This document shows, piece by piece, positions 1 to 31,181 of a stretch of 47,142 nucleotides of DNA. This DNA comes from a virus (lineage: Duplodnaviria; Caudoviricetes). Each line of letters opens with the position of its first letter. Position 1 is the first letter of the stretch. The notes under the pieces are model-generated. The model was not told the origin of the DNA and did no database searches. It saw only the letters and a list, made by a program, of their open reading frames with translations. The stretch lies in IMG/VR virus record IMGVR_UViG_3300027790_000008, positions 1 through 47,142 of that record; one strand, 5' to 3'. Made by a program: the position numbers and the translations under genes.

Positions 1-127
1 CGACGATGAAAGTCGTGAGGTCTTGCGGCAGGAGATCGACTTCCTGCGCGAAAAGGCCCGCCAGATGGATGCCACCGCGCATTCCACCGGCCGCGAAAAG
101 GCGCTTGGGGACATCGTGCAAGACGTC
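1..127 (+). repeat. Terminal direct repeat, copy 1 (assembly circularisation overlap)
   Basis: 1-127 identical to 47016-47142; 127 is a common assembler k-mer; lies mid-CDS. Confidence 0.95.
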
Positions 128-3100: not shown

Positions 3101-6100
3101 CGCCCGCCCGAGCGCCTTCTGTCGAAATACTTCAAGAGTTCCAAGGAATTTGATGATCTGTACGGCGGCGGCGGGTATTTCACGGACCCGGCTGAAATGT
3201 TCGCCCGAGCATTCGAGGCATGGGTAGGGCGCTCCGTTGCGCAGATTTCCGATCTGCCACAGAGTTTCCTGTCAAAAGGTCAGTGGGCGTATGACAGCGA
3301 CCACGAAGACCGTCTTGCGATGACCTTCCCCAAGGACACGGACGCCGATCAATTTTCTATTGCGATGACGCGACTTTCCCAGGCCATACGGTCAACGAAC
3401 CTGTTTGGCCCGGATGCGGCCCCCAAGGCTCCAACCGATGTGGCGACGTTCGACAACAACGACCTTCTGCGGCGGGCAAAGCGCCCAGGCGCGGTGGCGC
3501 AGGAAGTGGAGGAATACAGGAAGTTCCGCAATCGGCTGCACAGCATGATCGACGCCGCTATTTCCGCGGAAACGTGGCGCAAGAAGGGGCGCGGCATTCG
3601 CCGGGTTTACCAGACGTTCATCAACACGCAGGGCGAGGCCATGAAGGCAATCGCCAACCGTCAGGAAAGTGCTGCGGCCCGACGCGCCCTGCACAATATC
3701 CGAAAGCAGGTTGCGAAAGATCCGGGGTCAGGGGAGGCCACCGGGGCGATCTATCAGGAAGAAGTGGAAATGTCGGCCAAGCGTCGGGTGCAGAAGGTGC
3801 GTGGGGCCATTCGGAAGCGGTTCGGGGCGAAGTATCTGACCGACACCGATCTTCGCATTGTTCGTGGCCTTCTGGTTGGCGAGAAGCCGGATGGAACAAC
3901 TGCCCAGCATGAGAATCTGGCCGGTGACTTGCGCGGTATCCTGAATGAAATTTGGTATGACCTGAAAAACGCCGGTGTGAGTGTCGGCTACCAGGCGGAC
4001 TATCTGCCTCATATTCTGGACACGGAGCGGGTGGATGCGGACCAGGACGGGTTCAAGGTCAAAGCCGCCGAAGTCTATGGGCTCTTGTTTGACCGGGAGA
4101 TTGTCGAGAGCGATGATCCTGACACGCAGGGCGCAGACATTAACGCGGTGATCCGTGGTCTACGCCGCGCCTTTCAATCCATGCCGGATGGCGAGCGCGA
4201 GGCCCAGCCGCGTCTGAGTGAAACCGACGAAGCCATGATTACGACCTATCGGGAAACCCGTAAGCGGGTGAAGGACTTGCAGCGGCGGCAGGCCAAGAGC
4301 GAAGACCCGGACAAGTACGAAGACAAGATAGCGGCGGCAATCGAAGACCACGAAACCGCCAAGGCTGAAATGCTGGACATGCTGCGCGACCGGTATTCGG
4401 ATCATGCTGCGGAGAAGTGGTTTATCAAGATGGGGGTCGGGCAGATCAATGACTTCGGCACCATCGGCCCGGCGTCGGCATTCCTTGAGGGGCGGACGCT
4501 TCCCAAGGAAACCGGGAGCATCATGGCCGGGTTCATGCAGGAAGACCCAATCGAGATGATTCAGGGCTATTCCTTTGCGGCCGCCAGGATCGCGGAATAT
4601 GCCAAGCGGTTCGGGGCCGATCACTCCAAGCTGGAAACCATGCTGAGCGCGGCGCGGGATGCGGGCGTGAGCAAGGAAGACATTGATGCCATGAAGGAAA
4701 TGATCAACGGCGCGACCGGGCGAATGGAAGCGTCGTCGGTTGGGTACAAGAAGTTCGCCACGTTCTTCTTTACGATCGGCACCTTGGGACTTCTCACGTT
4801 CGCCACGTTCACGTCGCTGGTCGAGAGCATGGTTGCAGGGATGCGGACGGGGCGCACCAGAGACTCGTTCAACGGGATCATCCAGAACGTCGATACGCTG
4901 GTTCGGAAGGGCAAGCGCGAGGAACTGATTTCCCTTGCCAACACCATTGGCCTGATTGCCCCGCACTCGATGGAAACCGTGATGGAAAACCGGATGGGCG
5001 CGGATGCTCTGGACATTTCCCCGGCCTCACAGCGGGCGGTTCAGAGGTTCTTTGTTATCAATGGCTTGACCCCGTTGACGAACTTTCAGCGGGTTTCGAT
5101 GCAGCCAATCGCGCACTCGTTCATCCTGTCTTTGTTGCGGGAGGTTCAGGGCGGCAGGCGTTCGGTCAATTCGGCGCTCCGGGATCAGGTTGCCGGTGAG
5201 CGCGATGGGTTTGCCAAGGGCGAATTGAATGAACTCGGGATTTCCAAGGCTGACAGGGCTGACCTTCTGGAATGGCTCGAAAGTCTGGACGGAATGCCGA
5301 AGATGGAGGATCTGTTTGCCCCCAATGGCGACATGCACCCGGCGGGCGAGATTTATTCCCGCGCAATCAATCGCTTGGTGAATGAGATTATTCAGAACCC
5401 GCTCAAGACCGATCGCGCTGTTATGGCAAACCACCCGGATCATGCGGCCAAGTACGGCATCATGTCGTTCATCGACGCCTTCACCCGGAATATCCTTCTG
5501 CGCAACCTCAAGCGGGGCGTGAAGGACACCGATAGTCTTGGTGTTCGTGGTGTGAAGCGGAGCGCGAACGTCGCTCTGGCAATGGCCCCATATGCGGCGC
5601 TTTTGGGCGGGCACGTCCTGACCACAATTCTGCGTGAGGCGCTTCTGAATCAGGACAGGTGGGAGGAAAAGCGCGAGGAAGGTGAGCTTGAGGAATGGCT
5701 GTTCGAGCGGGCGTTTGCCAGAACTGGCGTCCTTGGGCGGCTTGATCCTTTGGTTCAGCTTGTTGTAGGCATCAAATACGAGCGCGATCTGACCACGGTA
5801 ACGGCTGGTCCGTACCTCGGGTACTTCCTGCAACAGATGTTTGTTACGGGTAAAGCCCTCATGTCTGGCTATCGCAATTCGAAAAACACCAACACGACGG
5901 AATATAATGCTGTTCGGGCAGCCTATCGTCTGATGATCCAGCCCGCGCTTGCTTTTGGTATCTCGTCGCTTGGCCCTGCTGGCCCAGCCTCGCAATGGAT
6001 TTCCCGCGGGCTTCTGTATTCCGTCAGCAAGCACGACACGTCCGCCAAGTTCGCAGATACCCTTGTCGGGGAAAAGGGATTGAAACATCGCGGAGACCCG

Positions 6101-6136
6101 CCGTGGTGGGAGACAGGCGACGGTCTGTTCCAATAG
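23..6136 (+). CDS. Giant internal virion (ejection) / large polyvalent protein, 3' part; true start at 46564, ~2195 aa total; zincin-like HExxH plus LPD1-like domain
   Basis: In frame with ATG 46564 across the circular join; motifs SFAHEWGHALDHY and YFTDPAEMFARAFEAWV; last and largest gene of the ejection-protein cluster. Confidence 0.8.
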   Translation: MRQEIDFLREKARQMDATAHSTGREKALGDIVQDVMKIQGLNSEIAALPINPAAKAVGEAETFGEGFDAALDDPLGVLRTFGLRSLPASAPSIAGAIAGQFLGGPIGAALMSGAAGHQTEMQLAMSDGIMRELADAGVDVKSPDAVAAYLNSNEAVLGDVIERALVRAGVISAADAATAGIAGKVVALARNSGRTARAGTAAAVGTTIEPIGEMAGEAGAQIASGESIQPGEVLAEGIGGVSQGGPTALAQTVAEGARNAPKAQAFKDFAKQIDQTLVAPATLGDVIQQLSTPQDTPIPRPAPPQQPVAPEADAPPVPDQPVAPAVSTQKQEEAPDDEASAPFVPEQNQPPESSAPIPDWDASVRENPTLRLKRPLTRAIIGKKGIRWREASGPRRGELTPLASEFKHRGITPQTYPGIFSPRGAADIDNIVYSEVFDTPGVLPEENGYIDRDALIDALVGEIEGRQPFFTRQSDRQAYEDYNRQLADAYRTYQAGEAPLDIVIPNFWRSEIGRKEDDFGDFFDADYDRQYEVQKGVDAALAVIDPDQTLTPHHRNAMIADIFENGGDFEEAVLRMMFAEMRSMEESQNATRTQETDGGIQGESAEGAGQPAIQRGAESVGPSGNQPGNRARAGTKEGGAIDVTDEGDQQVIPGAEKITDKDLAQRKMDEPKRGGDAAPPEGGLFDDDERNQTSLFERGNDVPSGDSVPKGERSGDGGRSVGSEQDAEQRGKSASRKGGSTVRPDATSDADGGGAGEQTSLLDAGRIGRRPPGRLGPSFLKFSFNNRTSVYQAALADAGIDPEKARLMPPDQQTPKIAKMIEDKFGVKVELPKIKVKRKNRFGRTVVESRTSISSREALDQLLDAYQNMTMLASVMGIPEYAIGLPIDGKGITLSLVSKNALRGALGMFSWGSSRKIILPGRSNSFAHEWGHALDHYLNNMVDNPTFTDLLTQNMDKKGLVQPLSPRRLVTEAFAHVMWSMFGDGMTVNALVLELQVQSAELGADGKPTKKAKDAQRLLTDMREGRRPPERLLSKYFKSSKEFDDLYGGGGYFTDPAEMFARAFEAWVGRSVAQISDLPQSFLSKGQWAYDSDHEDRLAMTFPKDTDADQFSIAMTRLSQAIRSTNLFGPDAAPKAPTDVATFDNNDLLRRAKRPGAVAQEVEEYRKFRNRLHSMIDAAISAETWRKKGRGIRRVYQTFINTQGEAMKAIANRQESAAARRALHNIRKQVAKDPGSGEATGAIYQEEVEMSAKRRVQKVRGAIRKRFGAKYLTDTDLRIVRGLLVGEKPDGTTAQHENLAGDLRGILNEIWYDLKNAGVSVGYQADYLPHILDTERVDADQDGFKVKAAEVYGLLFDREIVESDDPDTQGADINAVIRGLRRAFQSMPDGEREAQPRLSETDEAMITTYRETRKRVKDLQRRQAKSEDPDKYEDKIAAAIEDHETAKAEMLDMLRDRYSDHAAEKWFIKMGVGQINDFGTIGPASAFLEGRTLPKETGSIMAGFMQEDPIEMIQGYSFAAARIAEYAKRFGADHSKLETMLSAARDAGVSKEDIDAMKEMINGATGRMEASSVGYKKFATFFFTIGTLGLLTFATFTSLVESMVAGMRTGRTRDSFNGIIQNVDTLVRKGKREELISLANTIGLIAPHSMETVMENRMGADALDISPASQRAVQRFFVINGLTPLTNFQRVSMQPIAHSFILSLLREVQGGRRSVNSALRDQVAGERDGFAKGELNELGISKADRADLLEWLESLDGMPKMEDLFAPNGDMHPAGEIYSRAINRLVNEIIQNPLKTDRAVMANHPDHAAKYGIMSFIDAFTRNILLRNLKRGVKDTDSLGVRGVKRSANVALAMAPYAALLGGHVLTTILREALLNQDRWEEKREEGELEEWLFERAFARTGVLGRLDPLVQLVVGIKYERDLTTVTAGPYLGYFLQQMFVTGKALMSGYRNSKNTNTTEYNAVRAAYRLMIQPALAFGISSLGPAGPASQWISRGLLYSVSKHDTSAKFADTLVGEKGLKHRGDPPWWETGDGLFQ

Positions 6137-6144
6137 TGGCCTGA

Positions 6145-6159
6145 TTGGTGTTTTTGGTG
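6145..6159 (+). promoter_or_regulatory. Phage-specific motif TTGGTGTTTTTGGTG upstream of virion gene 6196
   Basis: Exact 15-mer also at 22918, 36364 and 38434, always at or near a gene boundary just upstream of a gene start and followed by a -10-like hexamer. Confidence 0.7.
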
Positions 6160-6195
6160 TATTAAAGGGCACCATCAACTCAAGGAGGGCCAATA

Positions 6196-7089
6196 ATGGC
6201 AACTTTCGATACTGTGGAAATGGTGCTGGCGTCGTCCGTTGCTGACGCAGGCACCTTCAACGTCTCGTATCCGGACAACCGGAATGCAGGCGATTACACT
6301 GGCGGCAGCAACCACGGCGTTGTGAGTAATCGCTACGGAGAACTCGACGCTCGGGCCGGGGAAGTTTCTTTCTCGTTCGGGGCATCGAATATCACCGTCA
6401 CCAACAATTCTGGACAGACCCTTGCCGCCGGCGAAACCATTTTCGTCCAGCTTGATCGGCTGGGCGCAGACATGGAAACCAATGCCCTTGCGCACCCGGA
6501 AAGCATGGCGCACACCCATGTAGTGACCATCAACCTTGGTGCGCCTGATACGGCCGACGTTGACGGGATCTTCGCGGCATACACCGGATCGACACCGGCG
6601 CTGGACGGCGCTCTGGTCTCTGGCGGGGTGGCGACACTGGATGTTCCGCGCAATATCGTCGTGGATTCCGGTGGAGCAGATACGGCCGTCCTGACCTTCA
6701 CCGGAACCGACGTGCACGGGGCGACCGTGGTCGAAAGCATCACCCTGAACGGCATTACCGCCGTTGCCGGGAAGAAAGCCTTCAAGACCATCACGGGCGT
6801 ATCGTCCAGTGGCGCGATTGCCAATGGCGCGTTTGCTGGTCCGGGCGATGTTCTCGGTTTGCCTGTGTTCTTGCCGCAGGTTGGTCAGGTGCTTGCCGAG
6901 TTGGAAGATGGCGCCGCAGCCACCGCAGGAACCGTTGTTGCCGGGGCGACAGCCGTTGCGACCGCCACGACCGGCGATGTGCGCGGCACCTACGATCCGA
7001 ACAGTGCCGCGGATGGCTCCAAGTCGTTCCAACTTGTCGTGGCCCTGGGCGACCCGTCGGCCAAAGGCAACAGCCAGTACGCCGGTTAA
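6196..7089 (+). CDS. Virion structural protein (head decoration / cement-like), 297 aa
   Basis: AAGGAGG RBS; Gly/Ala/Thr/Val-rich beta-type composition; followed by a hairpin like the one after the major capsid gene. Confidence 0.6.
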   Translation: MATFDTVEMVLASSVADAGTFNVSYPDNRNAGDYTGGSNHGVVSNRYGELDARAGEVSFSFGASNITVTNNSGQTLAAGETIFVQLDRLGADMETNALAHPESMAHTHVVTINLGAPDTADVDGIFAAYTGSTPALDGALVSGGVATLDVPRNIVVDSGGADTAVLTFTGTDVHGATVVESITLNGITAVAGKKAFKTITGVSSSGAIANGAFAGPGDVLGLPVFLPQVGQVLAELEDGAAATAGTVVAGATAVATATTGDVRGTYDPNSAADGSKSFQLVVALGDPSAKGNSQYAG

Positions 7090-12087: not shown

Positions 12088-12119
12088 GCCCCGCTGGCCC
12101 TATGGCTGGCGGGGCTTTT
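12088..12119 (+). terminator. Intrinsic terminator ending the late/lysis transcript
   Basis: GCCCCGCTGGCC-CTAT-GGCTGGCGGGGC followed by TTTT, between convergent genes. Confidence 0.75.
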
Positions 12120-12143
12120 GCGTTTGGGGGTAAGTGGACTGGT

Positions 12144-12338
12144 TCAGTAGGTGAATTTTCGGGCGTGTTTCTTGCCGCCTTCAATCGCGTCCTCGACTGT
12201 CTGGCAATTCTCGACGCCGCCGAGGTTCTGCCGCGTCACGCCGCACGAAACGCGAGCCTGAAAGGGGCCGCTGTTTTTGCTGTCGAACACCTGAACCCGG
12301 ATGCCTTGTGATTGCAGTTCGTCGTAGTGGGTCGCCAT
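12144..12338 (-). CDS. Left-array cassette L8, hypothetical protein, 64 aa
   Basis: GAAAGGAAA RBS within the junction repeat. Confidence 0.7.
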   Translation of the reverse strand: MATHYDELQSQGIRVQVFDSKNSGPFQARVSCGVTRQNLGGVENCQTVEDAIEGGKKHARKFTY

Positions 12339-12362
12339 GTGTTTTCCTTTCGGTGGGGGTTT

Positions 12363-13295
12363 TTAGGATTGACTGTCTAGGGCGCGAACCGCGTCAATTG
12401 CGGCGGTCCAGCCAAGACGGAATGAATCGGCATTCTGCGAAGGCGTATCAACGGGAAGGCCGTGCTTTGCCAGCGCCTCCTTCAATGCGTCATGGTTGTA
12501 TGCGGGCTTGTCGTGCAGGCTCATGTTTTTGCCTTTCGGGGGTTTTGCCGCGAGCGGGGCTGGATAACCGTCATGCACGACGCCATCCAGTTCCCGGCCC
12601 TTGGCCTTGATTTCGCGTTGGTTGCGGCCTTCCCATTGCTTGAACAGGAAAGGCACATCGGCGGCGGCACACTGGTCGCGCAGGCTGCGAAACCAGTCAG
12701 GATCAACAGGACGATAGGCGCTACCGTTTTCGCCCCCGGTAATGACCCATTCCAGCCCGTCGATATGATGCGATAGATCGACCGGGCCAAGCAGCGGCTC
12801 CATACTCAAGAAGTGAACCACGGCAGGCACGGCAGTCAGGTGCGCCAGCCGGTCGGCTTCTTTCTGGCTTTCGACGGTCGCCCCTAGCCACACGTTCGGA
12901 TAACCGTTGCCCCAATCCTTGGGCAGATAGCGCGCGATGTTCTGCGGGCGCTTTGTCAGCATGAGGAAATCGAGGTTCGGGCACTGCCGGATCAAGGCCC
13001 ACAATTCATGCCGCCAAGCGGTCAAGATGCTCTTATGGTTGTCGAACACGTCAGCCAGTGAAGCTACAAACACACGCGGGCGCTCGGCAGCGCCTTGAGC
13101 CTGCTTATTCCATTTGATCGGGTTGCCCCATGTCTTTGTGCGCGTCCTCGCTGCATGTGGCCCCCAACGCTCACCGCCGAAGCGGTTATCCCAAGCCTCT
13201 GCATAGCAGTGATCGCAAGCTGCGCTGACCTTTGTGCAGCCGATCCATGGGTTGAACGTATGGGTGGTCCATTCGATGCCACTGTTCTCGGCCAT
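12363..13295 (-). CDS. Phage Gp37/Gp68 (DUF5131-type, radical-SAM-like) protein L6, fused in frame to a 53-aa cassette L7 (12363-12524)
   Basis: IEWTTHTFNPWIGCTKVSAACDHCYA, VFVASLADVF, LTKRPQN, SMEPLLG, WVITGGE, FLFKQW and GRELDG motifs. Confidence 0.9.
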   Translation of the reverse strand: MAENSGIEWTTHTFNPWIGCTKVSAACDHCYAEAWDNRFGGERWGPHAARTRTKTWGNPIKWNKQAQGAAERPRVFVASLADVFDNHKSILTAWRHELWALIRQCPNLDFLMLTKRPQNIARYLPKDWGNGYPNVWLGATVESQKEADRLAHLTAVPAVVHFLSMEPLLGPVDLSHHIDGLEWVITGGENGSAYRPVDPDWFRSLRDQCAAADVPFLFKQWEGRNQREIKAKGRELDGVVHDGYPAPLAAKPPKGKNMSLHDKPAYNHDALKEALAKHGLPVDTPSQNADSFRLGWTAAIDAVRALDSQS

Positions 13296-13321
13296 GTGGT
13301 GCCCTCCGGGGATTGTTGGAT

Positions 13322-13651
13322 TCAGGAAAATTCTTCGCTGGCCCACTCATGCCAGTCGAAATCACAGCCGCACGACCATTTGGTGAACCAGCCACCCTTG
13401 CTGTCTGGCAGGTCCCCCATATCGTGTGGGGTCTCGTGGCAGTTGGGACACTCTGGCATTGAGACCGTGACCACCGTTCCCGGCGGGAAGGTTCGCGCGG
13501 AGAGCATAAGCGTCCCCTCGCGCCCGACTGGCCCGTCTCCGTCCATGTCGCCCTCCGCCGAACCCATCCAGCGGGGCTCGTGCCGGTCGCAGTTGGGTCC
13601 GGCGTAAACGTCAGGCGCGTGGCGCGCTCTCATGGTTTCGCGTAGCTGCAT
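13322..13651 (-). CDS. Left-array cassette L5, hypothetical Zn-ribbon protein, 109 aa
   Basis: CPNC...CGC; GGAGG RBS in the junction. Confidence 0.75.
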   Translation of the reverse strand: MQLRETMRARHAPDVYAGPNCDRHEPRWMGSAEGDMDGDGPVGREGTLMLSARTFPPGTVVTVSMPECPNCHETPHDMGDLPDSKGGWFTKWSCGCDFDWHEWASEEFS

Positions 13652-13667
13652 AGTGCCTCCGGGGTTT

Positions 13668-13898
13668 TCAGGACTGTTTGGTTAGAACTGCCGCTGCGGT
13701 TTCGAGAATTTTCTCACAAGCGGGATGCTTTGGCGTCCACGCGGCATCGGCTGATACCCGGTTTAGGGCGCTCTCTAGTTCGCGGATGCGAGCGTTGGCC
13801 ACGTCTGCGCGGACGTATTCGGTATAGCCTGATCGGCTGGGCTTGCGTCTAACCCAGTGATCGAGGTTGGCCCATATCCGCTCTGGTGTCTCTGACAT
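13668..13898 (-). CDS. Left-array cassette L4, hypothetical protein, 76 aa
   Basis: MSETPERIW...TEYVRAD motif common in small phage proteins; GGAGG RBS. Confidence 0.75.
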   Translation of the reverse strand: MSETPERIWANLDHWVRRKPSRSGYTEYVRADVANARIRELESALNRVSADAAWTPKHPACEKILETAAAVLTKQS

Positions 13899-13911
13899 AT
13901 CGGCCTCCGGG

Positions 13912-14163
13912 CTAGTTGGATTCAGCAGTTCCGTTTCTGACTTCATGCCATTCTACGGCTGTATCTGGCGTTTCGGCAGCTATCCAGTGGGTTCCGGCCC
14001 ATGCCTCAACATCGACGGGCAATCCGGCCATCGACCGATCAGCAAATTGGAAATGCCCGCCCGCACCGTACAAGGAATATCCTGTGTCCCATATCGCCAT
14101 TTGGACGCCAGCGACCCCCTTCAACTTGACGTAACAAATTTGCATGTCTTTTGGCGTTTTCAT
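13912..14163 (-). CDS. Left-array cassette L3, hypothetical protein, 83 aa
   Basis: ATG at 14163 after the junction RBS; ends ESN* inside the next junction. Confidence 0.7.
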   Translation of the reverse strand: MKTPKDMQICYVKLKGVAGVQMAIWDTGYSLYGAGGHFQFADRSMAGLPVDVEAWAGTHWIAAETPDTAVEWHEVRNGTAESN

Positions 14164-14180
14164 TCTAGGTGCCTCCGGGG

Positions 14181-14582
14181 TTAGTTGGATTCGGGTTTCG
14201 ACGGGATGTATTCTTGGTTCCGGCTGGCCTTGAATTGGAACCCGGTGAAAGTCAGGCCATGCTTGTCCTGCCACGCGTCCATTGTCTCGCGCACCATCTT
14301 TTCAAGGTCGGCGCGGAGTTCCGGTTTGATCGGAAAGATTTCGACGTCTCCCTCGGGGTCGCCGTGATCCTCGTAGGCGCGTTCTTCGGCTTCCTCTGCG
14401 AACATGTGGCCGTCAAAGTATCGGCTTATCTTGATATTGGCTGGCTTCATCGCCTCAACAATGTGGCCGCCGTCCTGTTCTTCGGATGCGATGTAGACCG
14501 CTTCCTCTCTGGTTTCGCATTCGGTGTGGTAGCGTTCATCGTCGTGGCCGACCCACCATTTCCAGTTCTCTTGTTCGCTCAT
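14181..14582 (-). CDS. Left-array cassette L2, acidic hypothetical protein, 133 aa
   Basis: GGAGG RBS; ends ESN* inside the junction. Confidence 0.8.
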   Translation of the reverse strand: MSEQENWKWWVGHDDERYHTECETREEAVYIASEEQDGGHIVEAMKPANIKISRYFDGHMFAEEAEERAYEDHGDPEGDVEIFPIKPELRADLEKMVRETMDAWQDKHGLTFTGFQFKASRNQEYIPSKPESN

Positions 14583-14603
14583 GTGGTATTCCTCCGGGGG
14601 TTT

Positions 14604-14951
14604 TTAGGACTGGTTCGCCAAGCGCAGCAAAGCGTCCGCATGGCAGGGTTTGTCGAGCGGGCACCAGCAAGCGAGGTCTTTGCCCGCCAACTCGTGCAGG
14701 CTTCGCCGAATAACTACCCGCTTTGCCGCCATGCTCTCACGGGTTTGCCCTTGTGGGATGCCCCAATCTTCGCCGCGCATCCACCCCGAGAAAGCGTCAA
14801 CGGCAGCCCCGCGCCCGTCTCCATAGCCAATCTCGGCGGCGGCGCGAAAGTCGAACGGGTTCCCCCACTTGCTAGGCCGCGCCACAATCACAGCGTCAGG
14901 GTGGTCTTTGCGCCACGGCTTCTGGCGGGTCATTTGAATGCGCTTTGGCAT
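14604..14951 (-). CDS. Left-array cassette L1, DUF4326-type protein, 115 aa
   Basis: VARPSKWGNPF...LAGKDLACWCPLDKPCHADALLRLAN signature. Confidence 0.85.
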   Translation of the reverse strand: MPKRIQMTRQKPWRKDHPDAVIVARPSKWGNPFDFRAAAEIGYGDGRGAAVDAFSGWMRGEDWGIPQGQTRESMAAKRVVIRRSLHELAGKDLACWCPLDKPCHADALLRLANQS

Positions 14952-15002
14952 GGTGCCTCCGGGGTAGTTGGATTGCGGCGCGGCATTGCGCCCTTGCACA
15001 CT

Positions 15003-15054
15003 AAATTACACCAGAAATTGGCGTATTGCAACCGCCAAGTTTTGGCGTTATGGT
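15003..15054. promoter_or_regulatory. Symmetric divergent sigma70-type promoters sharing a palindromic -35 TTGCAA
   Basis: TTGCAA at 15026-15031; 17 bp to TATGGT (15049-15054) rightward and 17 bp to TAATTT (complement of 15003-15008) leftward; TTGGCG/CGCCAA inverted repeats in the spacers. Confidence 0.7.
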
Positions 15055-15060
15055 GGCTGC

Positions 15061-15222
15061 ATGACATGGCAAGATTACCTCAGCAATAAAGAGCGCGCGG
15101 AACTTGAGCGGGCAGAGCGCAAGCGCGACGACGCGCGAGCGGAGTACAACGCTCTTAGGGTGAAGCTGAAAAGCCGCGCGGACAATCGCCGCAGGAAGGA
15201 GCGCGCCAGTGAAAAGGACTAG
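15061..15222 (+). CDS. Small basic coiled-coil protein, 53 aa, probably leaderless
   Basis: MTWQDYLSNKERAELERAE...; ATG 6 nt after the -10 box; no RBS. Confidence 0.65.
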   Translation: MTWQDYLSNKERAELERAERKRDDARAEYNALRVKLKSRADNRRRKERASEKD

Positions 15223-15772
15223 CCTCTATCGCCATTTTGACGCGAGCGGTAAGCTGCTCTATGTCGGCATCTCGGCCAGCTTCATGGCGAGGCTATGCCA
15301 GCATTCGTCCACGTCGCATTGGTATTGGCGTATCGCCAAGGTCGAGGTCGAGCATTTCAAGACGCGCGCTCATGCGCAGTATGCCGAAGCCTTGGCGATC
15401 CGCGATGAAGGGCCGCTTTACAACAAAGCGAAGCCAGTCCCTCGCAATCCTGACATTCCGATACCTAAGCTGGTGATGCCTCCCCCTGCGCCTGTCGTGC
15501 CTGACACACCGCGCAAGATCGGCTATATCTGCGCGGAAAGCCGGTTCGTGGGGCCGCAGTCGGTAGGCTTGCGTCATGTCGGTGTACCGGACGCCCTGAC
15601 CTTCGTTGACGTGCTTGAAGAAGTGGGCGACGAGCGCCCGATGCTCATTCGCATGGCAAAGACAGCGCAACATGCCGGAACGGAGGTCTATCACCTTCAT
15701 AGCTCCGCGATCCCGCAGGACTTGCGGGCTATCTTGGAGGGCCGTGGCGTGGTTATCAAATGCGCCGCCTAA
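15209..15772 (+). CDS. GIY-YIG nuclease-family domain fused to a degenerate resolvase-like domain, 187 aa
   Basis: SLYRHF...LLYVGIS...RLCQH...E..AI..E.PLYN; Pro-rich linker; KIGY...RPML...RGV C-terminal domain. Confidence 0.7.
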   Translation: MKRTSLYRHFDASGKLLYVGISASFMARLCQHSSTSHWYWRIAKVEVEHFKTRAHAQYAEALAIRDEGPLYNKAKPVPRNPDIPIPKLVMPPPAPVVPDTPRKIGYICAESRFVGPQSVGLRHVGVPDALTFVDVLEEVGDERPMLIRMAKTAQHAGTEVYHLHSSAIPQDLRAILEGRGVVIKCAA

Positions 15773-15845
15773 GCGAGTTCGCCCGGCGGCGAAACAATTT
15801 CAACGCTGCGCGTTCGCGCGGCAGGGTCTAAACAGGAGCGAGATT

Positions 15846-16070
15846 ATGGCGGGTTATGCGATCAGGTCAGTTTGCCCGTGCGGGTGGTGGTGCACGCCTG
15901 CCTTCGGTTCAGAGTTTTTTTCCCGCACCGACTTTCCGGTCTGCCCAAAATGCGGTGCTCCTGCGCGCGATCGGGAGCTTGTGTCAGCTCGCATCGTAAA
16001 GGTTGAGGGCCGCCCATGGTGGCGGTTTCCAGAATGGCGCCTCGAGCTGGCGCCGAGTGAATCCAGATAG
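15846..16070 (+). CDS. Right-array cassette R1, Zn-ribbon protein, 74 aa
   Basis: CPCG...CPKCG; AGGAG RBS; ends ESR* in the junction. Confidence 0.75.
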   Translation: MAGYAIRSVCPCGWWCTPAFGSEFFSRTDFPVCPKCGAPARDRELVSARIVKVEGRPWWRFPEWRLELAPSESR

Positions 16071-16080
16071 GAGCGAGGCG

Positions 16081-16173
16081 ATGCCAGTACCGAACCTGCA
16101 ACCGGGCGAATTCATTTGCCGCCACTGCTTCTTGCGGCGGCGGTTCGGGCCGGAAATCGAAATAGATTTTTGA
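16081..16173 (+). CDS. Right-array cassette R2, 30-aa peptide MPVPNLQPGEFICRHCFLRRRFGPEIEIDF
   Basis: Read by eye, below the ORF-track cutoff; fills the space between two junctions exactly. Confidence 0.65.
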   Translation: MPVPNLQPGEFICRHCFLRRRFGPEIEIDF

Positions 16174-16192
16174 TCCAGAAAAGGAGCAAGGC

Positions 16193-16429
16193 ATGGCGAA
16201 ATACCAAGGCGGATTGACAGAAGCCCCGGCAATTGGCGCGTATCTGCCGCAGCATTCGGACGGTCCCGCGCGGACGCCATGCCCTAGCTGCGACGGCATT
16301 GCGATTGTCGTTTGGCGACCGGGCGGTGCTTTTCAGCAGCGGACAGAATGCGCTTGCGGGCGAAAAACACGTTGGGTGATGTGCGGCCATGATGCTGAGC
16401 CTGATACAACCGACGACGAATCCAGATAG
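16193..16429 (+). CDS. Right-array cassette R3, Zn-ribbon protein, 78 aa
   Basis: CPSC...CACG; ends ESR* in the junction. Confidence 0.75.
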   Translation: MAKYQGGLTEAPAIGAYLPQHSDGPARTPCPSCDGIAIVVWRPGGAFQQRTECACGRKTRWVMCGHDAEPDTTDDESR

Positions 16430-16440
16430 GAGAGCAAGGT

Positions 16441-16590
16441 ATGGTTTGGGGAAAGTCAAAAGAGAATGTGATGCGTATTCTGCCGCGGGGCTTGCGGGGC
16501 AACGTGCGAGGCAAGTTTCTCTGCAAGGGGCATGACGCGCTTTACTGGCGCACTCGCTGGACCGAAGTCCGGCTTATGAAGTTTTGGTAG
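16441..16590 (+). CDS. Right-array cassette R4, basic 49-aa protein (MVWGKSKENVMRILPRG...MKFW)
   Basis: Read by eye; runs from junction to junction. Confidence 0.65.
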   Translation: MVWGKSKENVMRILPRGLRGNVRGKFLCKGHDALYWRTRWTEVRLMKFW

Positions 16591-16608
16591 TCTGAATAGG
16601 AGCGCGAC

Positions 16609-16860
16609 ATGGCTGAAACAGTGGAAATTGACATGCCCAAGGATGCGGCGGTGCGCGTTATGTGCCAAGACCTGCACAAGATGCGTGAAGGGCTGGCCGC
16701 GATGGGGCTGCACGCGCACATTCTCGATCAGGTGAGCGACAAGCTGAAAGAGCAGGCGCGTCAGATTGAGCATCACAGAGCGGATCGCGCCTACATCATC
16801 GGCCACAATGACGGGTGGGATGCGGCAATGGCTACCGGGCTTGCGGGCGACGTGGAATAG
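16609..16860 (+). CDS. Right-array cassette R5, hypothetical protein, 83 aa
   Basis: AGGAG RBS; stop TAG is part of the next junction. Confidence 0.75.
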   Translation: MAETVEIDMPKDAAVRVMCQDLHKMREGLAAMGLHAHILDQVSDKLKEQARQIEHHRADRAYIIGHNDGWDAAMATGLAGDVE

Positions 16861-16870
16861 GAGCGAGGTC

Positions 16871-17107
16871 ATGGACGATTTGAGGCCGGGCGCTGGTCTG
16901 CCAGAAATTGAGTTTCTGCCGATCCAATGCCCCAAGTGCGGGCGCACAGCGAATAGCGCGAGGGATGATCTAGACCCTCCGTCGGCAGTTCGTGCAGAGA
17001 TTTTATGCCCCGATTGCGTCGGTGGCGACTTCGGGACCACGACATATTTCGACGCGGAGGGCAGGGAGTTGGTGCCCGGTCCTGACGGAAGCGAAGAACC
17101 CAAATAG
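16871..17107 (+). CDS. Right-array cassette R6, Zn-finger protein, 78 aa
   Basis: CPKC...CPDC; stop TAG in the junction. Confidence 0.75.
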   Translation: MDDLRPGAGLPEIEFLPIQCPKCGRTANSARDDLDPPSAVRAEILCPDCVGGDFGTTTYFDAEGRELVPGPDGSEEPK

Positions 17108-17147
17108 GAGAAAACTATGCCAGAAATTCAAGCACCAAACACACCAC

Positions 17148-18254
17148 TTAGATCCCGCGCTGATCCACGACGCTCAAGAGTTCGTCCATCGTGTGATGGC
17201 GGTACACCCGCAGGATTGTCCGGGCGTCGGTGGCCGTCAACTTGGCGACGGTCTCGATCGCAACGCCCCGCCGCAACATGAGGGTAATGGCCGTGTGCTT
17301 CATGACGTGCGGCGTGACCCATCCATAGCCAATGTCCCGCATGAACGTGTCGAAGGCCGACGCAGACCGCATCCCGCAGACCCGCTTGCCCCGGCCTCGG
17401 ATCAAAAAGGCTTCTTCCAGATCGGCCCGGATGCCGACGGTCATAGGAACCACGGGACGCCGCTTTCTGGATACAACCTTATCCGGCGGGTTGAAGTCGA
17501 TCTTCCCGGTGATGAAATCAACCTGCGGCCCGAACCGAAGATCCAGAAGGACGCCTTTCCGCGCGCCATAGGCCAGCCCCATTTTCGTGAACAGGCGGAC
17601 CCCCAGAGGCGCATCCGGCAGGCGGGCGATAATCTCCCGCTCCTGCTGTTCGGTTAGCCAGGTATCCCGCCCTTGCCCGTCAGAAGGCTTCTCAAACCGA
17701 TAGACGGGTTTGCCGCGGATCATTCCCTTGCGGCTCCCGAAGTTCAGGACAGCTTGCAGGGCGGTAATCTCCCTGCGGATCGTCGCGGGCTTGACTGCGC
17801 GTTCTCCGTGGCTCCCAGCGGCTCTACGGCGCGCGTAAGCGTCAACGTCCTGATCCCGGACCGCCACAGCCGCCGTCTTGCCAAAAGCTGCCAGCGGGGC
17901 GCGCATGTTCTGCCTGTCGGACTTTTCATTCCCGCGGCGCCGTGAGTGCATGTAGATGTACGCCTCGAAGACGTCGGCAACCGTCTTGTCGTCAAAGTCG
18001 TCGTCGGCATTGCGCACCGTCAAGAAGCGGGCCAACGCGGCCTCTGCCTTATCGCGGCTTCCAGTTTTGGTGCTTTTGCGCTTGGACCGCCACCCGCCGC
18101 CTTGGTTTTCAGACCACCGGATTTCGTAATATCCGAATGAGTTGGGTTCGTCGCTCAGATGCGGGAAGGTTCTCATGACGTGTACGGCTCTATCAGGTCG
18201 ATGATTTGAGAGGCGACGGACAGGGGCGGGCATCGGTGCTTCTTCACTGGTCAT
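17148..18254 (-). CDS. int: Tyrosine recombinase / phage integrase (start codon uncertain)
   Basis: Arm-binding-like N-terminus (YEIRW...RKSTKT), core-binding KPATIRREITALQAVLN, catalytic YGAR, PHVMKHT and VYRH. Confidence 0.88.
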   Translation of the reverse strand: MTSEEAPMPAPVRRLSNHRPDRAVHVMRTFPHLSDEPNSFGYYEIRWSENQGGGWRSKRKSTKTGSRDKAEAALARFLTVRNADDDFDDKTVADVFEAYIYMHSRRRGNEKSDRQNMRAPLAAFGKTAAVAVRDQDVDAYARRRAAGSHGERAVKPATIRREITALQAVLNFGSRKGMIRGKPVYRFEKPSDGQGRDTWLTEQQEREIIARLPDAPLGVRLFTKMGLAYGARKGVLLDLRFGPQVDFITGKIDFNPPDKVVSRKRRPVVPMTVGIRADLEEAFLIRGRGKRVCGMRSASAFDTFMRDIGYGWVTPHVMKHTAITLMLRRGVAIETVAKLTATDARTILRVYRHHTMDELLSVVDQRGI

Positions 18255-19079: not shown

Positions 19080-19411
19080 GTCACCGCCCCGCCAAGTCCG
19101 CAGTAGCCTTCCTTGCGCTCGATGCCATAGCCTTCGGGGTTCCGCACGATCCGCTGCACCGCCTTGTTGTGAAAGCCGACAACCGCCTTCTCCTTGCCGG
19201 TGCGCTCCTTGTGCTGTTCCGCCAGGGAATACATTTCCCGCTTGATTGCGGCCGAGAACTCGGGATCTGTGGCGAGCCGCGGCTTCCATCGCCAGACCGG
19301 GCAGGCATCGCCCATGCAGTTCGGGCCTTTCTTGTCGGCAAATGTCCGGGCCAGCGGACAGGGCATGGTTTCACGGGCCTGCGCCACGGAAAGATAGAGG
19401 GTATCAGTCAT
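19076..19411 (-). CDS. Hypothetical Cys-rich phage protein, 111 aa
   Basis: CPL...CMGDACPVWRW...GYCGLGG motif. Confidence 0.75.
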   Translation of the reverse strand: MTDTLYLSVAQARETMPCPLARTFADKKGPNCMGDACPVWRWKPRLATDPEFSAAIKREMYSLAEQHKERTGKEKAVVGFHNKAVQRIVRNPEGYGIERKEGYCGLGGAVT

Positions 19412-20417
19412 CGGCCTTCTCCTTCGCGAATTTCATGGATTGATCCCAGCCGCCAAGCCATTGCCCGGCCATGACGTGATCGTTGTGCGGGCATTCCGTG
19501 CGGGGTGTTCCGGCCTGCTGTGCCTTCGCGCCATCGGTGAACAGATCGTCCATCGGCGTTGCGTCGGACGTGTCGATTTCATCCGTCCAGTGGCCTCCAT
19601 CCGCGTCGAGGATTTCGCCATCGACCACCTTGGGTTCGTCGGCCTGCGCTTCCTTGAGTTTCTGAGCGAGGTTCTTTTGCGGCTCCGGGGTAATGTCCTT
19701 GATAGGGGCGCTGTCCTGCTCGACCATCACCCGGCGCATGTCTTCGGCGGACAGGTCCAGACGCTTGCAGAGGCGACGGATCACCGTCTTCTTCCACATT
19801 TCGTCCGTCCATTGCTGCCAGATGCCGTTCGGGTTTTCGTGCTTGCGCTGCTGGGGGGAAGACCGACGTATCTTCTCGATCTGGTCGCGGTCCATGAACT
19901 CCCGAACGATTGTTCCGTCCTTGAGTTTCGCGATTGCATAGGCGGCAACCGCACCGCCCTTCTCGCCAAAAAGGATCGGCTTGTGGATCAGGGTTTCATT
20001 GTCGCCCACCACATATTCAAACCGTCCGTCATCCAGTTCCCCTTGATAAACAATGTGCGCCCGAATGTCGGACACATCACCCGAGCGGCGGGCCATCTTG
20101 ATAAGGCCGAACACCATTGGCATTGCCTGGGCGACCTTACCTTCCTTGGTGAAGAACGGCACAATTGCCGCCTCCCGGCCATCCGGCACCAGCCCTGCGG
20201 CGGCAATGGTGCGGATCGACTTCATGACTGTCGCCGGGTTGCAATTCAGGATTTCAGGATTGTCCTGCACCGCCACAACGGCTGCGTTCCGAAACGCCTC
20301 CACTGTCACGTTCGACGGCAGGGCGAGTTCCTTCCGGTCGATCAGCGCGTTAAGATCCTGCTTGAATGCCACGATCGGTTTGACGGCGGTCTTCTTTGTG
20401 GTTGCTACCTCGTTCAT
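19404..20417 (-). CDS. recT: RecT-family ssDNA annealing protein with C-terminal RMF-like extension
   Basis: GLVPDGREAAIVPF, GLIKMARRSG, AYAIAKLKDG, W...DEMWKKTVIRRLCK. Confidence 0.92.
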   Translation of the reverse strand: MNEVATTKKTAVKPIVAFKQDLNALIDRKELALPSNVTVEAFRNAAVVAVQDNPEILNCNPATVMKSIRTIAAAGLVPDGREAAIVPFFTKEGKVAQAMPMVFGLIKMARRSGDVSDIRAHIVYQGELDDGRFEYVVGDNETLIHKPILFGEKGGAVAAYAIAKLKDGTIVREFMDRDQIEKIRRSSPQQRKHENPNGIWQQWTDEMWKKTVIRRLCKRLDLSAEDMRRVMVEQDSAPIKDITPEPQKNLAQKLKEAQADEPKVVDGEILDADGGHWTDEIDTSDATPMDDLFTDGAKAQQAGTPRTECPHNDHVMAGQWLGGWDQSMKFAKEKADD

Positions 20418-20420
20418 GTC

Positions 20421-21401
20421 TTACTCCAAGTTCGGCAAAAGTCCGTGCTTCTGCATCTGTTCAAATCGCTTCTGCATACTGTCCGGGTATTGGTAGGCAA
20501 TCGGGTCAGGAGCCACGCCAGGCCACTCCCCCGTGTCGAGCCCGTGCTTCATCCTGTCCAAGCCCTGACGGATCAAAACCCGCGCCCAATAGATGCTCAC
20601 AGGGTCAATCTCTATCGGCACAACCTCGAAAGGCGCGGACGTCTGCACGAACACAAGCGCGCACCGCTCTGCCGTGGTCCCGAAGACAACTTCTGCGCCC
20701 ATGACCGCCAGCGCCATTTGCAGCGGATAGCCGAAGTCCGTGACAGACCTTTGCGCGGAGATAATCAGATCTCGCGATTTCGGGGCAAAGGTTTTCAGAT
20801 CCCCGAAGTCAACGCCATTCGACGGAATGCAGTCCGGGCGGGATTTGATCCATATGCCCGTGATCGGATCTTGCCAGACCATGCTGATTTCGATCAGGTC
20901 GGACGTCAGAACCTCGACGGCAAAAGTGTTCTCCCGAAGGTTCTCACCCATGCGCATAATCTTCTCGACCTGTTCTTCTTTCAGGAGCAAGCGACCGGCG
21001 GCGTTGGCGTCGAACTCTGCCCACCATTCCGCACCTTTTGCGGCAGCATCCGACCATACACCGTCCCGCTCAAAGGCTTTCACCTGTACTGCGGTCGGGC
21101 GGCGGGGCGCATCCTTCGGCACATAGACAAAGTGTTCGTCAAATACCTCGTCACCGAGGATCAGCGCATGAGCGGCCCGGCCAAGGATCAGACTGTCGGA
21201 CGGTTCCTTTTCGGGGTAGCGATCCGGGTTCAGATCAGACGTTTTCCAGAACGCATGAGGGCTTTGCAGGGCCAGAAGCCGAATACCCGTTGAACTGACA
21301 GAAGGCCCATCGCAGCATTGGCTGTGATACCAAGACATGCTCATGCGATAGGCGCCGGGTTCGGTGATGATTTCGCCGTCTGCAATCTCGCGAATGTTCA
21401 T
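20421..21401 (-). CDS. Exonuclease VIII-like PD-(D/E)XK nuclease (RecE partner, DUF3799-type)
   Basis: GRAAHALIL, EISMVW, KSRPD, DLKT and YPLQMA; immediately upstream of recT. Confidence 0.88.
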   Translation of the reverse strand: MNIREIADGEIITEPGAYRMSMSWYHSQCCDGPSVSSTGIRLLALQSPHAFWKTSDLNPDRYPEKEPSDSLILGRAAHALILGDEVFDEHFVYVPKDAPRRPTAVQVKAFERDGVWSDAAAKGAEWWAEFDANAAGRLLLKEEQVEKIMRMGENLRENTFAVEVLTSDLIEISMVWQDPITGIWIKSRPDCIPSNGVDFGDLKTFAPKSRDLIISAQRSVTDFGYPLQMALAVMGAEVVFGTTAERCALVFVQTSAPFEVVPIEIDPVSIYWARVLIRQGLDRMKHGLDTGEWPGVAPDPIAYQYPDSMQKRFEQMQKHGLLPNLE

Positions 21402-22600: not shown

Positions 22601-22917
22601 TGTCGTGCCCTCGTTTTGGTGAGGGTACAATATACAGCGATACGATTATTTCAAGTCGAAAATAAGCCCATTGCGGTATTTTCCGGTGAACACTGAGTTG
22701 CTTTATGCGCGATTCACTCGGGACAAGAATCTGTCTTGGCGTGTGGAGGTGATATGAAGGACTGCATAACGGACGATGTGCAGGGCGCACCAAGCAATTT
22801 GCTTATGAATTACGCAACTGGCATAAAAGTGTCCGTTCCCCTGCCGCAACGCAAGTACCTGATACAAAATAGCTTTCTTTGCTAATTTCGCGCATTGGCC
22901 TTCTGTCCGTTGTTCGA

Positions 22918-22932
22918 TTGGTGTTTTTGGTG
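22918..22932 (+). promoter_or_regulatory. TTGGTGTTTTTGGTG motif upstream of the tandem-HTH regulator
   Basis: Exact copy, within the AT-rich divergent intergenic region 22631-22945. Confidence 0.7.
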
Positions 22933-22945
22933 GTAATCAGATTGC

Positions 22946-24058: not shown

Positions 24059-24579
24059 AGATCGTCGCGCTTGATATTGCGACACAAACCGGTGTTGCCG
24101 TTGGAGATTCCGGCGGCAACCCGAAGTCCTGGTCTGTGGATTTGGGAAAGTCGCTGTCACAGGCGCGGCGGCTTTCCGAAGTTCTCAGGTTGACTCAGGA
24201 GCTTATCGAAACACATGCCCCGGATTTCGTCGCTCTGGAAGCGGCCATCGGGGGCAGGAATGCGAGTGCCTACCTGATCAAGCTGGTTGGCTGCGTCGAG
24301 GCGGTTTGTGCCAATCGCGGGGTGCCGTGCGAGGCGTTTCACAGCGGGTCGATCCGCAAGCACTTCTTGGGCAAGGCATATACCGCGCGAGACTTCCCGC
24401 ATTTCAAGGTTGCCGCCGCCAAGAAGGCGATCAAGGGGCTGGTCATGGACCGGTGCCGCCTGCTGGGCTGGGACGTCGAGGATGACAACGCCGCCGATGC
24501 CTGTGCGCTCTGGGACTATGTGTGCGCAAACCGGGCGCGCGGGTATCAGGCAAGACCTGTGGGGGGGCTGTTCAAGTGA
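24055..24579 (+). CDS. RuvC-like Holliday junction resolvase
   Basis: IVALDIATQTGVA, VALE and DDNAADACALW RNase H-fold acidic residues. Confidence 0.8.
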   Translation: MKIVALDIATQTGVAVGDSGGNPKSWSVDLGKSLSQARRLSEVLRLTQELIETHAPDFVALEAAIGGRNASAYLIKLVGCVEAVCANRGVPCEAFHSGSIRKHFLGKAYTARDFPHFKVAAAKKAIKGLVMDRCRLLGWDVEDDNAADACALWDYVCANRARGYQARPVGGLFK

Positions 24580-25652: not shown

Positions 25653-26349
25653 AAATCCAGCGTCGGGACCGCAGGGCAAGGGGTTTCAGGAAGATGTGGC
25701 CTATACTCTTGAGGCACGCAACAAGGTTCAAGCCGTGGCTTTCGCTGAGAACAGCCGTGGAGAGCTGCGCCTGCAAGGCGGTGACGGGCAGGTTGCGCCC
25801 CAGCTGACAACAGGTGGCGGCAAGCCCGGTCAAGGTCAGCCGTGCGTTGCATTCGATTGCAAAGGCACGGAGGTCCAATACACCGAAGACGGCTCTCACC
25901 CGACGCTTCGCAGTATGGGACACCTCTCAAGCCACCAAAATGCGGGCGGTCATGCAGCGGTGGCGTTTGGTTTATCGACTTCCGTGACGCCCAAGTATGG
26001 AGAAGAGGTTCAGCCTACCATTACGGTCCCAAGTCCAAGCGGCGGCGGGCAGCCTCCAGCTGTAGCTACTCCGTGGGCAGTTCGCCGCCTCACACCTCGC
26101 GAATGCGAGCGCCTGCAAGGCTTCCCCGATGATCACACATTGATCCCCAGAGATCGCAAGCGCGTGCTCAAGGATATGGAAGACGAGGTGCAATACCTGC
26201 TCTCCGAATATCCCGACATGACACCAGAAGAGGCGATCATGCTGGCAGCGGATGGCCCGCGCTACAAGGCGCTCGGCAACAGTATGGCCGTGCCTGTCAT
26301 GCGCTGGATTCTGGACCGGGTTCGCATCAGTTGGGAGCAAAACAAGTGA
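25324..26349 (+). CDS. C5-cytosine DNA methyltransferase, C-terminal frame (TRD-like repeats and terminal motifs)
   Basis: VAHSLR, VAYTLEAR and HPTLRS repeats; RRLTPRECERLQGFPD and RYKALGNSMAVPVM. Confidence 0.85.
   Translation: MTPAGRIRLLQIGRRRCHRRSTLTLATRWALRTNMRFRGGGCSFPEVSMCLNAGAMGRQDAETETLIPVSGGVFDVAHSLRGEGFDASEDGTGRGTPLVPVAIQERAVSENPASGPQGKGFQEDVAYTLEARNKVQAVAFAENSRGELRLQGGDGQVAPQLTTGGGKPGQGQPCVAFDCKGTEVQYTEDGSHPTLRSMGHLSSHQNAGGHAAVAFGLSTSVTPKYGEEVQPTITVPSPSGGGQPPAVATPWAVRRLTPRECERLQGFPDDHTLIPRDRKRVLKDMEDEVQYLLSEYPDMTPEEAIMLAADGPRYKALGNSMAVPVMRWILDRVRISWEQNK
25436..25445 (+). repeat. G10 homopolymer at the MTase frame switch
   Basis: CTTTC-GGGGGGGGGG-CTGTTC; losing one nucleotide fuses the two MTase frames. 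Confidence 0.85.
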
Positions 26350-31142: not shown

Positions 31143-31181
31143 GGTGTTTCCTTTCGAGTTGTTCCGGGGTTTCGGATCGGA

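Follow-up and report, generated by a model that had tools for sequence, protein, structure and literature searches.

This work concerns a stretch of phage DNA, IMG/VR record IMGVR_UViG_3300027790_000008 (analysed over its full 47,142 nucleotides and referred to here as the window), and an island of small genes within it, one half of which is an array whose genes are each preceded by a copy of a short junction repeat. The window represents the circular 47-kb genome of a temperate phage; it has a 127-nt terminal repeat and encodes an integrase, RecT/RecE, terminase, portal, and major head genes. The island is laid out as a left array, a hub, and a right array; the left array, which forms one half of it, is located between the lysis module and the integrase. 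The whole island was present in one metagenome run (marine sediment), a possible source of this DNA. Among cultured phages, a blastn search with the island gave no close relative, the matches listed (best 40 of 163) being essentially DUF5131 relatives, and a 41-nt junction query retrieved Aurantimonas phage AmM-1. The literature that we searched does not describe this island type; the supplements of genome papers were not covered, and a mention there is possible. The main text of the Paracoccus virome paper (PMC6536676) has no match for "resolvase," "invertase," or "cassette."

Junctions and cassettes of the left array

The features of the left array are listed below from the hub outward. Each junction (J1 to J8) consists of a 5' arm, a C-run, and a ribosome-binding site (RBS) ahead of the next ATG, and offsets within it are counted from the R of RTCY. 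Names beginning with X denote metagenome runs, whose contigs at least 90% like the window were used for breakpoint mapping (runs X5, X10-X17, and X19-X24 were left out); names beginning with L denote loci in other genomes and contigs. Din stands for the DNA invertase family, to whose sites the arms are compared further below.

14952..14975, minus strand: J1, the first junction after the hub; it precedes the first gene and ends no protein. The arm starts at 14973; X18 is identical from the C-run (14964) and has a different 5' half
14604..14951, minus strand: cassette 1, DUF4326 protein of 115 aa, ending NQS in J2
14583..14610, minus strand: J2, arm GTCCTAAAAACC, with 8/8 Din-consensus arm positions; X9 homology stops at 14597 in the C-run
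14181..14582, minus strand: cassette 2, 133 aa, phrog_1672, ending ESN
14164..14190, minus strand: J3, ATCCAACTAACC-CC-GGAGG; X4 homology stops at 14177, offset +13
13912..14163, minus strand: cassette 3, 83 aa, no family, ending ESN
13899..13921, minus strand: J4, a strict-pattern match
13668..13898, minus strand: cassette 4, 76 aa, no family, ending KQS
13652..13674, minus strand: J5, arm GTCCTGAAAACC, 10/12 identical to the gixL left arm
13322..13651, minus strand: cassette 5, 109 aa, phrog_24515, ending EFS ahead of the J6 core
13296..13321, minus strand: J6, stop-less variant ATCCAACAATCC-CC-GGAGG; X4 homology stops at 13308, offset +13
12363..13295, minus strand: cassette 6, DUF5131 (gp37/gp68 family), 310 aa together with cassette 7, to which it is joined in frame across J7
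12525..12547, minus strand: J7, without 5' arm and stop, with C-run and RBS kept; X2 is identical from 12542 down
12363..12524, minus strand: cassette 7, 53 aa from its own RBS, ending SQS
12339..12369, minus strand: J8, arm ATCCTAAAAACC, with a longer linker and a GAAAGGA-type RBS
12144..12338, minus strand: cassette 8, 64 aa, no family

All eight junctions quoted in an earlier sequence-only reading were located on the minus strand, before the ATG codons at 14951, 14582, 14163, 13898, 13651, 13295, 12524, and 12338. They are co-oriented, with a spacer of 4-8 nt between the Shine-Dalgarno (SD) sequence and the ATG in every case. A strict pattern, RTCCWR N5-8 CCGGAGG, gave six matches over both strands, all of them in the array (14973, 14610, 14190, 13921, 13674, and 13321), versus a mean of 0.06 and a maximum of 2 in 300 dinucleotide shuffles; RTCYWR stood upstream of the SD in 0/27 called SD-bearing genes outside the island. 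The junction and hub patterns were written post hoc, after the loci had been inspected. When the proposed position weight matrix (PWM) was built ungapped and scored leave-one-out over 94,238 positions, it recovered the six strict junctions at ranks 5-16 and missed J7 (rank 935) and J8 (rank 15,366), the latter having a good arm with a linker 6 nt longer. A PWM of the 5' 15 nt alone, also ungapped, did not single out the junctions (ranks 43-60,384) and is uninformative because the length of the C-run shifts the register. A chance or assembly artefact might be suspected, as the window is a circle from metagenomic data that one run shares in full, but its probability is negligible: the six matches compare with 0.06 expected, and isolate genomes as well as cultured phage AmM-1 have these junctions, a finding that together with the shuffle statistics refutes it. 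A loose likeness of the left junction, with a GAAAGGA RBS, was also seen at 31143-31185 (minus strand), upstream of a 160-aa gene (30660-31142) in a second cluster of small minus-strand genes.

The sequence-only reading held that the junctions dictate the C termini of unrelated proteins. The termini it gave (NQS, ESN, ESN, KQS, EFS, and SQS) are correct, but only five junctions (J2-J5 and J8) encode one; EFS is not made by J6, since the stop codon (TGA) precedes the core. J7 has lost its 5' half, including the RTCC arm and the stop codon, so that DUF5131 (start 13295) reads into the next gene as a single 310-aa open reading frame. In X3, X4, X6, and X8, relatives part from the window at 12547 (in X9, at 12553) and have a full, stop-bearing junction there that ends DUF5131; J7 is therefore a recent lesion. 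We agree that selection on the RBS alone is an insufficient explanation: the arm is preserved whichever of three reading frames it falls in, and also behind a stop, which makes the junction a DNA-level feature. Across arrays, the offset of the stop varies (-10, -9, -7/-6, or before the core), pointing to a constraint on nucleic acid rather than on protein, and the A-tract is kept where no stop codon lies at +7..9 (AAT/AAA/AAC in 34/42). The further expectation that homologues would have such ends only within arrays was examined on proteins that carry no genomic context, so that "outside arrays" is inferred. The counts support it: for the 133-aa gene, junction-type ends were present in 6/12 closest and 0/14 other homologues (26 in all), and for DUF4326 such ends are rare in the homologues listed (6/120; background 15/522).

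A junction tied so closely to start codons could instead be a translation-initiation or coupling element like the start-associated sequences (SAS) of mycobacteriophages, which spread and became a homology hotspot, the link to a recombinase described below reflecting shared island ancestry. Each copy does lie 4-8 nt before an ATG, most include the upstream stop, and SAS are likewise asymmetric, start-linked, and extended beyond 16S pairing (PMC3203893). At J1, UCC can pair with GGA, the anti-SD pairing probability being 0.93; at the other six junctions tested it was 0.00-0.22, and an anti-SD hairpin was accordingly rejected as a general cause. In addition, the arm is kept in any frame, the heptamer of its core occurs without an adjacent start codon in the inner hub repeats and at the 5' end of the enzyme gene, and the association is specific to one recombinase subfamily. 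We consider this account improbable. No promoter-like or same-strand terminator-like site was found in the left junctions, and 90-nt folds gave no consistent hairpin across these elements of ~19-25 nt.

Gene exchange at the junction

Exact-pattern scans found the junction in 29 + 15 viral stretches (IMG/VR contigs) and 19 genome stretches; about half of the 29-stretch viral set and a few of the 19 genome stretches have one chance match each and no array. With other genes, the junction is present in at least 10 named Rhodobacteraceae genomes of the 19 genome matches, and many alphaproteobacterial (pro)phages have it between genes that differ from those of the window. The array genes act as cassettes, being shared as gene-sized units beside different neighbours. 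Blocks shared with the window run from junction to junction, such as 14168-14613 at 97-99% identity (L029/L030), 13309-13662 and 14172-14582 (L008), 16856-17113 (L001), and 16589-16868 (L007). Cassette 2 has 99% identical copies, twice, in a Brevirhabdus prophage, beside other neighbours. The claim that the two distal junctions are the most diverged because new cassettes enter near the promoter was not supported: near-identical copies exist elsewhere for cassettes 1, 2, 5, and 6 and for distal cassettes 7-8 alike, so that there is no promoter-proximal age gradient. The distal stretch 12100-12542 has 0 differences in X2, where ~0.9 kb of other genes replaces 4.6 kb of the window, and the divergence of J7 is its lost 5' half.

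To place the exchange point, homologous cassettes with unrelated neighbours were compared, one pair per family. The SD-ATG spacer upstream of a homologous cassette had an identity of 0.74 versus a null of 0.40 (n = 12, p = 2e-4), and the 5' half of the junction downstream of it had 0.83 versus 0.60 (n = 9, p = 2e-4), while the downstream SD-ATG spacer was at background (0.39 versus 0.42). Thus, the first ~10 nt of a junction go with the gene before it and the SD-ATG spacer with the gene after it, which places most exchanges at offsets +9..+13. Contig breakpoints at 14964, 14597, 14177, 13308, and 12542 all fall in C-runs, and one at 16595/16597 falls in a right junction. Exceptions are X9 and X6, with which the window has the whole upstream junction in common. 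In one X7 contig, position 16417 is joined back to 16059 at a junction, giving two right-array genes in swapped order; this may represent a circle or another order in another phage. Cassette families keep to one array type (21/22, with one doubtful call set aside), and DUF5131 is found in both.

Several observations accompany these data. Whole-cassette duplicates with other genes between them occur within one array in L029 (8006-8411 and 8687-9092, 100%), L014 (1893-2305 and 3470-3884, 93%), and L008 (7269-7605 and 9430-9767, 95%). The cultured Aurantimonas phage AmM-1 (L201) carries the same island at 3400-6348, with a dead-type hub gene, a left array, and a short right array. At 17140, contigs from X2, X3, and X6 depart from the window with a common continuation and others join at 17132, so that a possible attachment site lies by the integrase end (17132-17140).

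Hub gene, intact relatives, and site geometry

The sequence-only reading, whose account of cassettes and a DNA-level junction stands, missed the link to a resolvase-family hub gene and the right array beyond it. These parts of the island, together with the features that bound it, are as follows.

14976..15060, no strand: hub intergenic region, with two palindromes and, read by eye, divergent sigma70-like promoters that have TTGCAA (15026-15031) in common and are below the threshold of the promoter scanner
15061..15222, plus strand: 53-aa putative regulator, with homologues directly ahead of the intact recombinase gene in L063, L065, and L070 (E 7e-9, 0.009, and 0.08)
15209..15772, plus strand: hub gene, a GIY-YIG-like domain and a truncated, dead serine-recombinase domain; YARVS reads YICAE, and DRLGR, helix E, and the helix-turn-helix are absent
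15826..17116, plus strand: right array of six small genes, with right-type junctions RTCYRR(N)2-4GGAG that have the heptamer core in common
12088..12115, no strand: terminator-like hairpin of 12 bp, separating the lysis module from the end of the array
17148..18254, minus strand: tyrosine integrase bounding the island (context)
19404..21401, minus strand: RecT-like annealase with RecE-like exonuclease (context; candidates for exchange on short homology)

The recombinase domain of the hub gene is 40% identical to an intact enzyme over 90 aa (E 7e-13). In unrelated phages, too, a left array faces a divergent gene that is followed by a right array, and in L022 and L046 this divergent hub gene is an intact PF00239 serine recombinase. 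A search with the intact enzyme gave 31 loci, the 17 closest of which were scored against generic resolvases; the latter serve as negative controls because a metagenome scan with the enzyme alignment (2 of 64 parts) returned nothing else (39-52% identity, 78/80 usable). A heptamer direct repeat of 13-bp period, ~95-110 nt upstream of the YARVS codons, was present in 12/17 loci versus 2/74 controls; a right junction overlapped or abutted the recombinase stop in 13/15 versus 1/76; and at least 2 left junctions lay upstream of the recombinase in 7/16 versus 0/44. Several loci have a full hub site (TCTGGAC-N5/6-TCTGGAC, 22 nt, GTCCAGA-N6-GTCCAGA), and others have a small regulator gene, including homologues of the 53-aa gene of the window, before the right repeat pair. 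The GTCCAGA repeats of intact relatives are absent from the hub intergenic region of the window.

The intact enzyme, found in relatives L062-L078, has invariant catalytic residues in 19/19 sequences and dN/dS values of 0.09-0.18 in 7 pairs. Its best match in the PDB is a DNA-invertase entry, 4m6f (E 5e-52, versus 7e-35 for Tn3 resolvase), and it is 49% identical to Mu Gin over 159 aa. The subfamily is rare in chromosomes, being found in 4/401 family-level and 1/401 class-level genomes, centre genome included, in a survey that scored only the top 7 candidates per genome; at E<=1e-40 it was not found in the genomes of L030, L038, and L037. The hub protein of the window gave no confirmed relative among viral contigs, and a strict hub-repeat pattern had 0 matches. 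The dead family of the L001/L058 type shows weak homology to the intact enzyme (hhalign 33.8%, E 4e-4), in contrast to the hub gene of the window. In L066-L068 and L071, large opposite-strand genes (353-622 aa) stand upstream of the recombinase where a left array is expected and give the impression of possible defence cargo. In a second clade of the intact enzyme (L079-L087, L202), the recombinase gene closes a left-type array distally, points the same way as the array, and is accompanied by longer variants of the junction. At the 5' end of the L062-L078 recombinase genes, the N-terminal S-E-S-E/N residues use TCY codons and so spell further copies of the junction core.

Din sites consist of a 12-bp arm, a 2-bp core, and a second 12-bp arm (PMC3241671, Table 3; PMC3985619, Table 1), and Min has several sites with variable right arms (PMC3241671, Table 3). 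The left junctions show the same 12-bp arm and 2-bp core geometry as Gin/Hin sites. Scored against the Din left-arm consensus TTC---AAAC(C), 12 bp from the core, J2 and J5 agree at 8/8 positions, J3 and J6 at 7/8, and J1 and J4 at 6/8. Over 25 recombinase-anchored loci, the distance from RTCY to GGAG peaks at 9-10 (32/94, the right type) and 14-15 (23/94, mode 14), with flat controls. The consensus of the 65 junctions at distance 14 is RTCCAACTAACC-CC-GG, whose arm agrees with published Din left arms at T2, C3, C4, A9, A10, C11, and C12 and in the GG after the core. On the right side of the junction, GGAGG-spacer-ATG follows the core CC. The junction is thus likely the left arm and core of a Gin-like serine recombinase crossover site, with the right arm replaced by the RBS of the next gene, and the conservation reported ~12 nt upstream of the SD would correspond to this one arm. 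The heptamer also resembles the 7-bp binding motif at the end of Tn3 site III, for which crystallisation oligonucleotides begin TGTCTGA (bioRxiv 2021.12.07.471667). Both geometries (for Tn3, from 25 bp + 3 bp) would put the cut at +12/+13, inside the mapped exchange window.

The same heptamer could be an operator, to which a resolvase-family protein would bind at its own promoter and at every gene start, silencing the arrays in a stoperator-like manner, with RecET swapping genes on short homology. Read by eye, a -35/-10-like arrangement ahead of the enzyme gene coincides in part with the hub repeats. The sites lack symmetry and all point along the direction of transcription, loss of catalysis has occurred repeatedly, and the window encodes RecT and RecE. 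However, the dead forms of the window, L001, and L058 end before the DNA-binding domain and so could not bind alone, the intact forms keep all catalytic residues under purifying selection, and neither the 14-nt spacing mode nor the AACC-NN-GG register is explained. We therefore regard an operator as unlikely. The left and right arrays lie in inverted orientation on either side of the hub, and in a Min- or shufflon-like system of multiple inversion the enzyme would flip the centre and trade genes between two promoters. An invertase-like enzyme between inverted arrays, the hybrid junctions of L022, L064, and L065, and the presence of DUF5131 in both array types fit such a system. Against it, hub orientation looks fixed in the loci viewed: the hub faces the integrase or away from the lysis genes in nearly all loci with these visible (by eye; a tblastn check of orientation resolved few loci only), L065 being the sole exception seen, and cassette families are almost wholly segregated by array. 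Multiple inversion is thus very improbable.

Proposed half-site exchange and known systems

Returning to a Gin-like crossover site as the source of the junction, we put the chance at about even that the junctions are relic or active invertase half-sites used for single-gene exchange between phages, by a mechanism that we infer. In outline, the enzyme would bind RTCYRR(A) and cut at +12/+13; a captured gene would then end in the 12-bp arm and start behind a standard RBS under a hub promoter. That captured genes end in this arm would account for unrelated proteins ending SN, SS, or QS. As the local enzyme is dead, present-day swaps would be the work either of an intact enzyme supplied by a co-resident phage or of RecET on ~19-nt homology.

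Several points weigh against this. The upstream 5' half is also slightly over the null in the polarity comparison (0.69 versus 0.56, p = 0.026), the 133-aa gene shares only AC+ATG upstream (X4, X9, L029), and sharing of DUF5131 begins at its ATG in X4 and X8. The mapped +9..+13 window is the best-conserved part of the junction (C-run/SD), where homologous or RecET crossovers would fall too. The junction is a half-site, in which the Din right arm (GGTTT---GAA) and the conserved core A are absent, and right-type junctions lack AAACC, sharing only the heptamer. Among 21 motif-found loci with at least 3 junctions, an intact enzyme was in view in 5, a dead one in 5, and none in 11 (some loci being truncated); the enzyme of this phage is dead, and the AmM-1 hub is also dead-type. 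Among the 17 loci scored above are the query locus itself, two near-duplicates of each other (L067/L068), and one locus, L073, that the motif search retrieved as well. Finally, Hin inverts, acts on inverted sites, and needs Fis and an enhancer (PMC3798978). The junctions within an array are direct repeats, at which exchange would need relaxed control.

Among named systems, the island is not a Din inversion system, an integron, an SAS, or a PeSL system. Of the Din systems (Hin/hix, Gin/gix, Cin, Pin, Min/mix), Mu Gin is the closest named enzyme of the intact relatives, and island junctions show a 12-bp arm, a 2-bp core, and GG, the J5 arm being 10/12 to gixL. Unlike in Din systems, the small serine recombinase of the window is dead and truncated (intact in L062-L078), the junction keeps a left arm only, with the RBS as right arm, a CC core, and no symmetric 26-bp site, and the sites are direct rather than inverted repeats, standing between whole genes. 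The outcome is gene exchange; no inversion was seen and no enhancer identified in the island. An integron combines a recombinase gene, an adjacent promoter, and a series of unrelated cassettes of one gene each, the 3' ends of which run into the recombination site. The island likewise has a recombinase gene, a promoter, and unrelated single-gene cassettes that overlap the site with their 3' ends and are exchanged at it. In contrast to IntI, its hub gene derives from a serine recombinase, the sole tyrosine recombinase being the phage integrase at the distal end of the right array; in contrast to attC, its junctions are ~19-25 nt without an attC-like hairpin; and it has two divergent arrays without promoter-proximal newest cassettes.

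The SAS and extended SAS (ESAS) of Cluster K mycobacteriophages are asymmetric, one-orientation repeats 3-7 bp before an ATG, with an SD and often the upstream stop, before small nonessential genes (PMC3203893). Island junctions are also asymmetric, SD-containing, and in one orientation, with a 4-8-nt spacer. Their left consensus, RTCCAACTAACCCCGGAGG, differs from the 13-bp SAS consensus, GGGATAGGAGCCC, of which the right type shares only ATAGGAG; the island repeat is confined around a recombinase gene and also marks the region upstream of that gene. At the island repeat one gene gives way to another; an SAS, by contrast, tends to accompany its gene family from genome to genome (PMC3203893). 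PeSL, a repeated intergenic element in hyperplastic regions of T4-type phages, shuffles genes and yields mini-circles by recombination between copies (PMC2839356); it comprises a sigma70 promoter and a stem-loop terminator, neither of which the island junctions have, and the junctions link to a site-specific recombinase. As for resolvase sites, the hub has direct-repeat half-sites like Sin site II, and its heptamer resembles that of Tn3 site III, whose geometry would predict the same +12/+13 crossover; unlike at Tn3 or Sin sites, there is no I-II-III layout, no transposase in the loci viewed, and an enzyme nearer to invertases.

Other features of the window were noted in passing. PADLOC gave only matches of DUF5131 to candidate models PDC-M41B/M30B and weak PDC-S14 matches, on which we base no defence claim. 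Four copies of TTGGTGTTTTTGGTGT(A), at 6140-6162, 22913-22935, 36359-36381, and 38429-38451, several of them before structural genes, are a possible late promoter or operator. A DNA methyltransferase lies in two overlapping frames (24522-25652 and 25324-26349), as a split gene, a frameshift, or an assembly error might produce, and strand skew is strong at 33001-34000 around a tail-fibre-like gene (GC skew +0.37, AT skew -0.38).

The means by which phages acquire and reshuffle tiny accessory genes at precise gene boundaries are a long-standing question, usually framed as illegitimate recombination plus selection versus dedicated boundary sequences. With a boundary sequence, an exchange point, and a candidate enzyme identified, this question can be put to a direct test; the intact enzyme is found in isolate prophages and a dead one in cultured phage AmM-1. 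Our broadest proposal, to which we give somewhat less than an even chance, is that temperate phages of alphaproteobacteria have a counterpart of the integron based on a serine recombinase: a Gin-like enzyme freed from inversion would capture and exchange single genes at half-sites in which an RBS has taken the place of the second arm, and would build two divergent expression arrays with separate cassette pools, the arrays remaining usable in trans after the death of the local enzyme. If true, this would be a second, independent route to an integron-like device, from another enzyme family, and would imply a relaxed half-site reaction that is new for invertase-type enzymes. The junction would then also be a marker for mining mobile accessory genes of phages.

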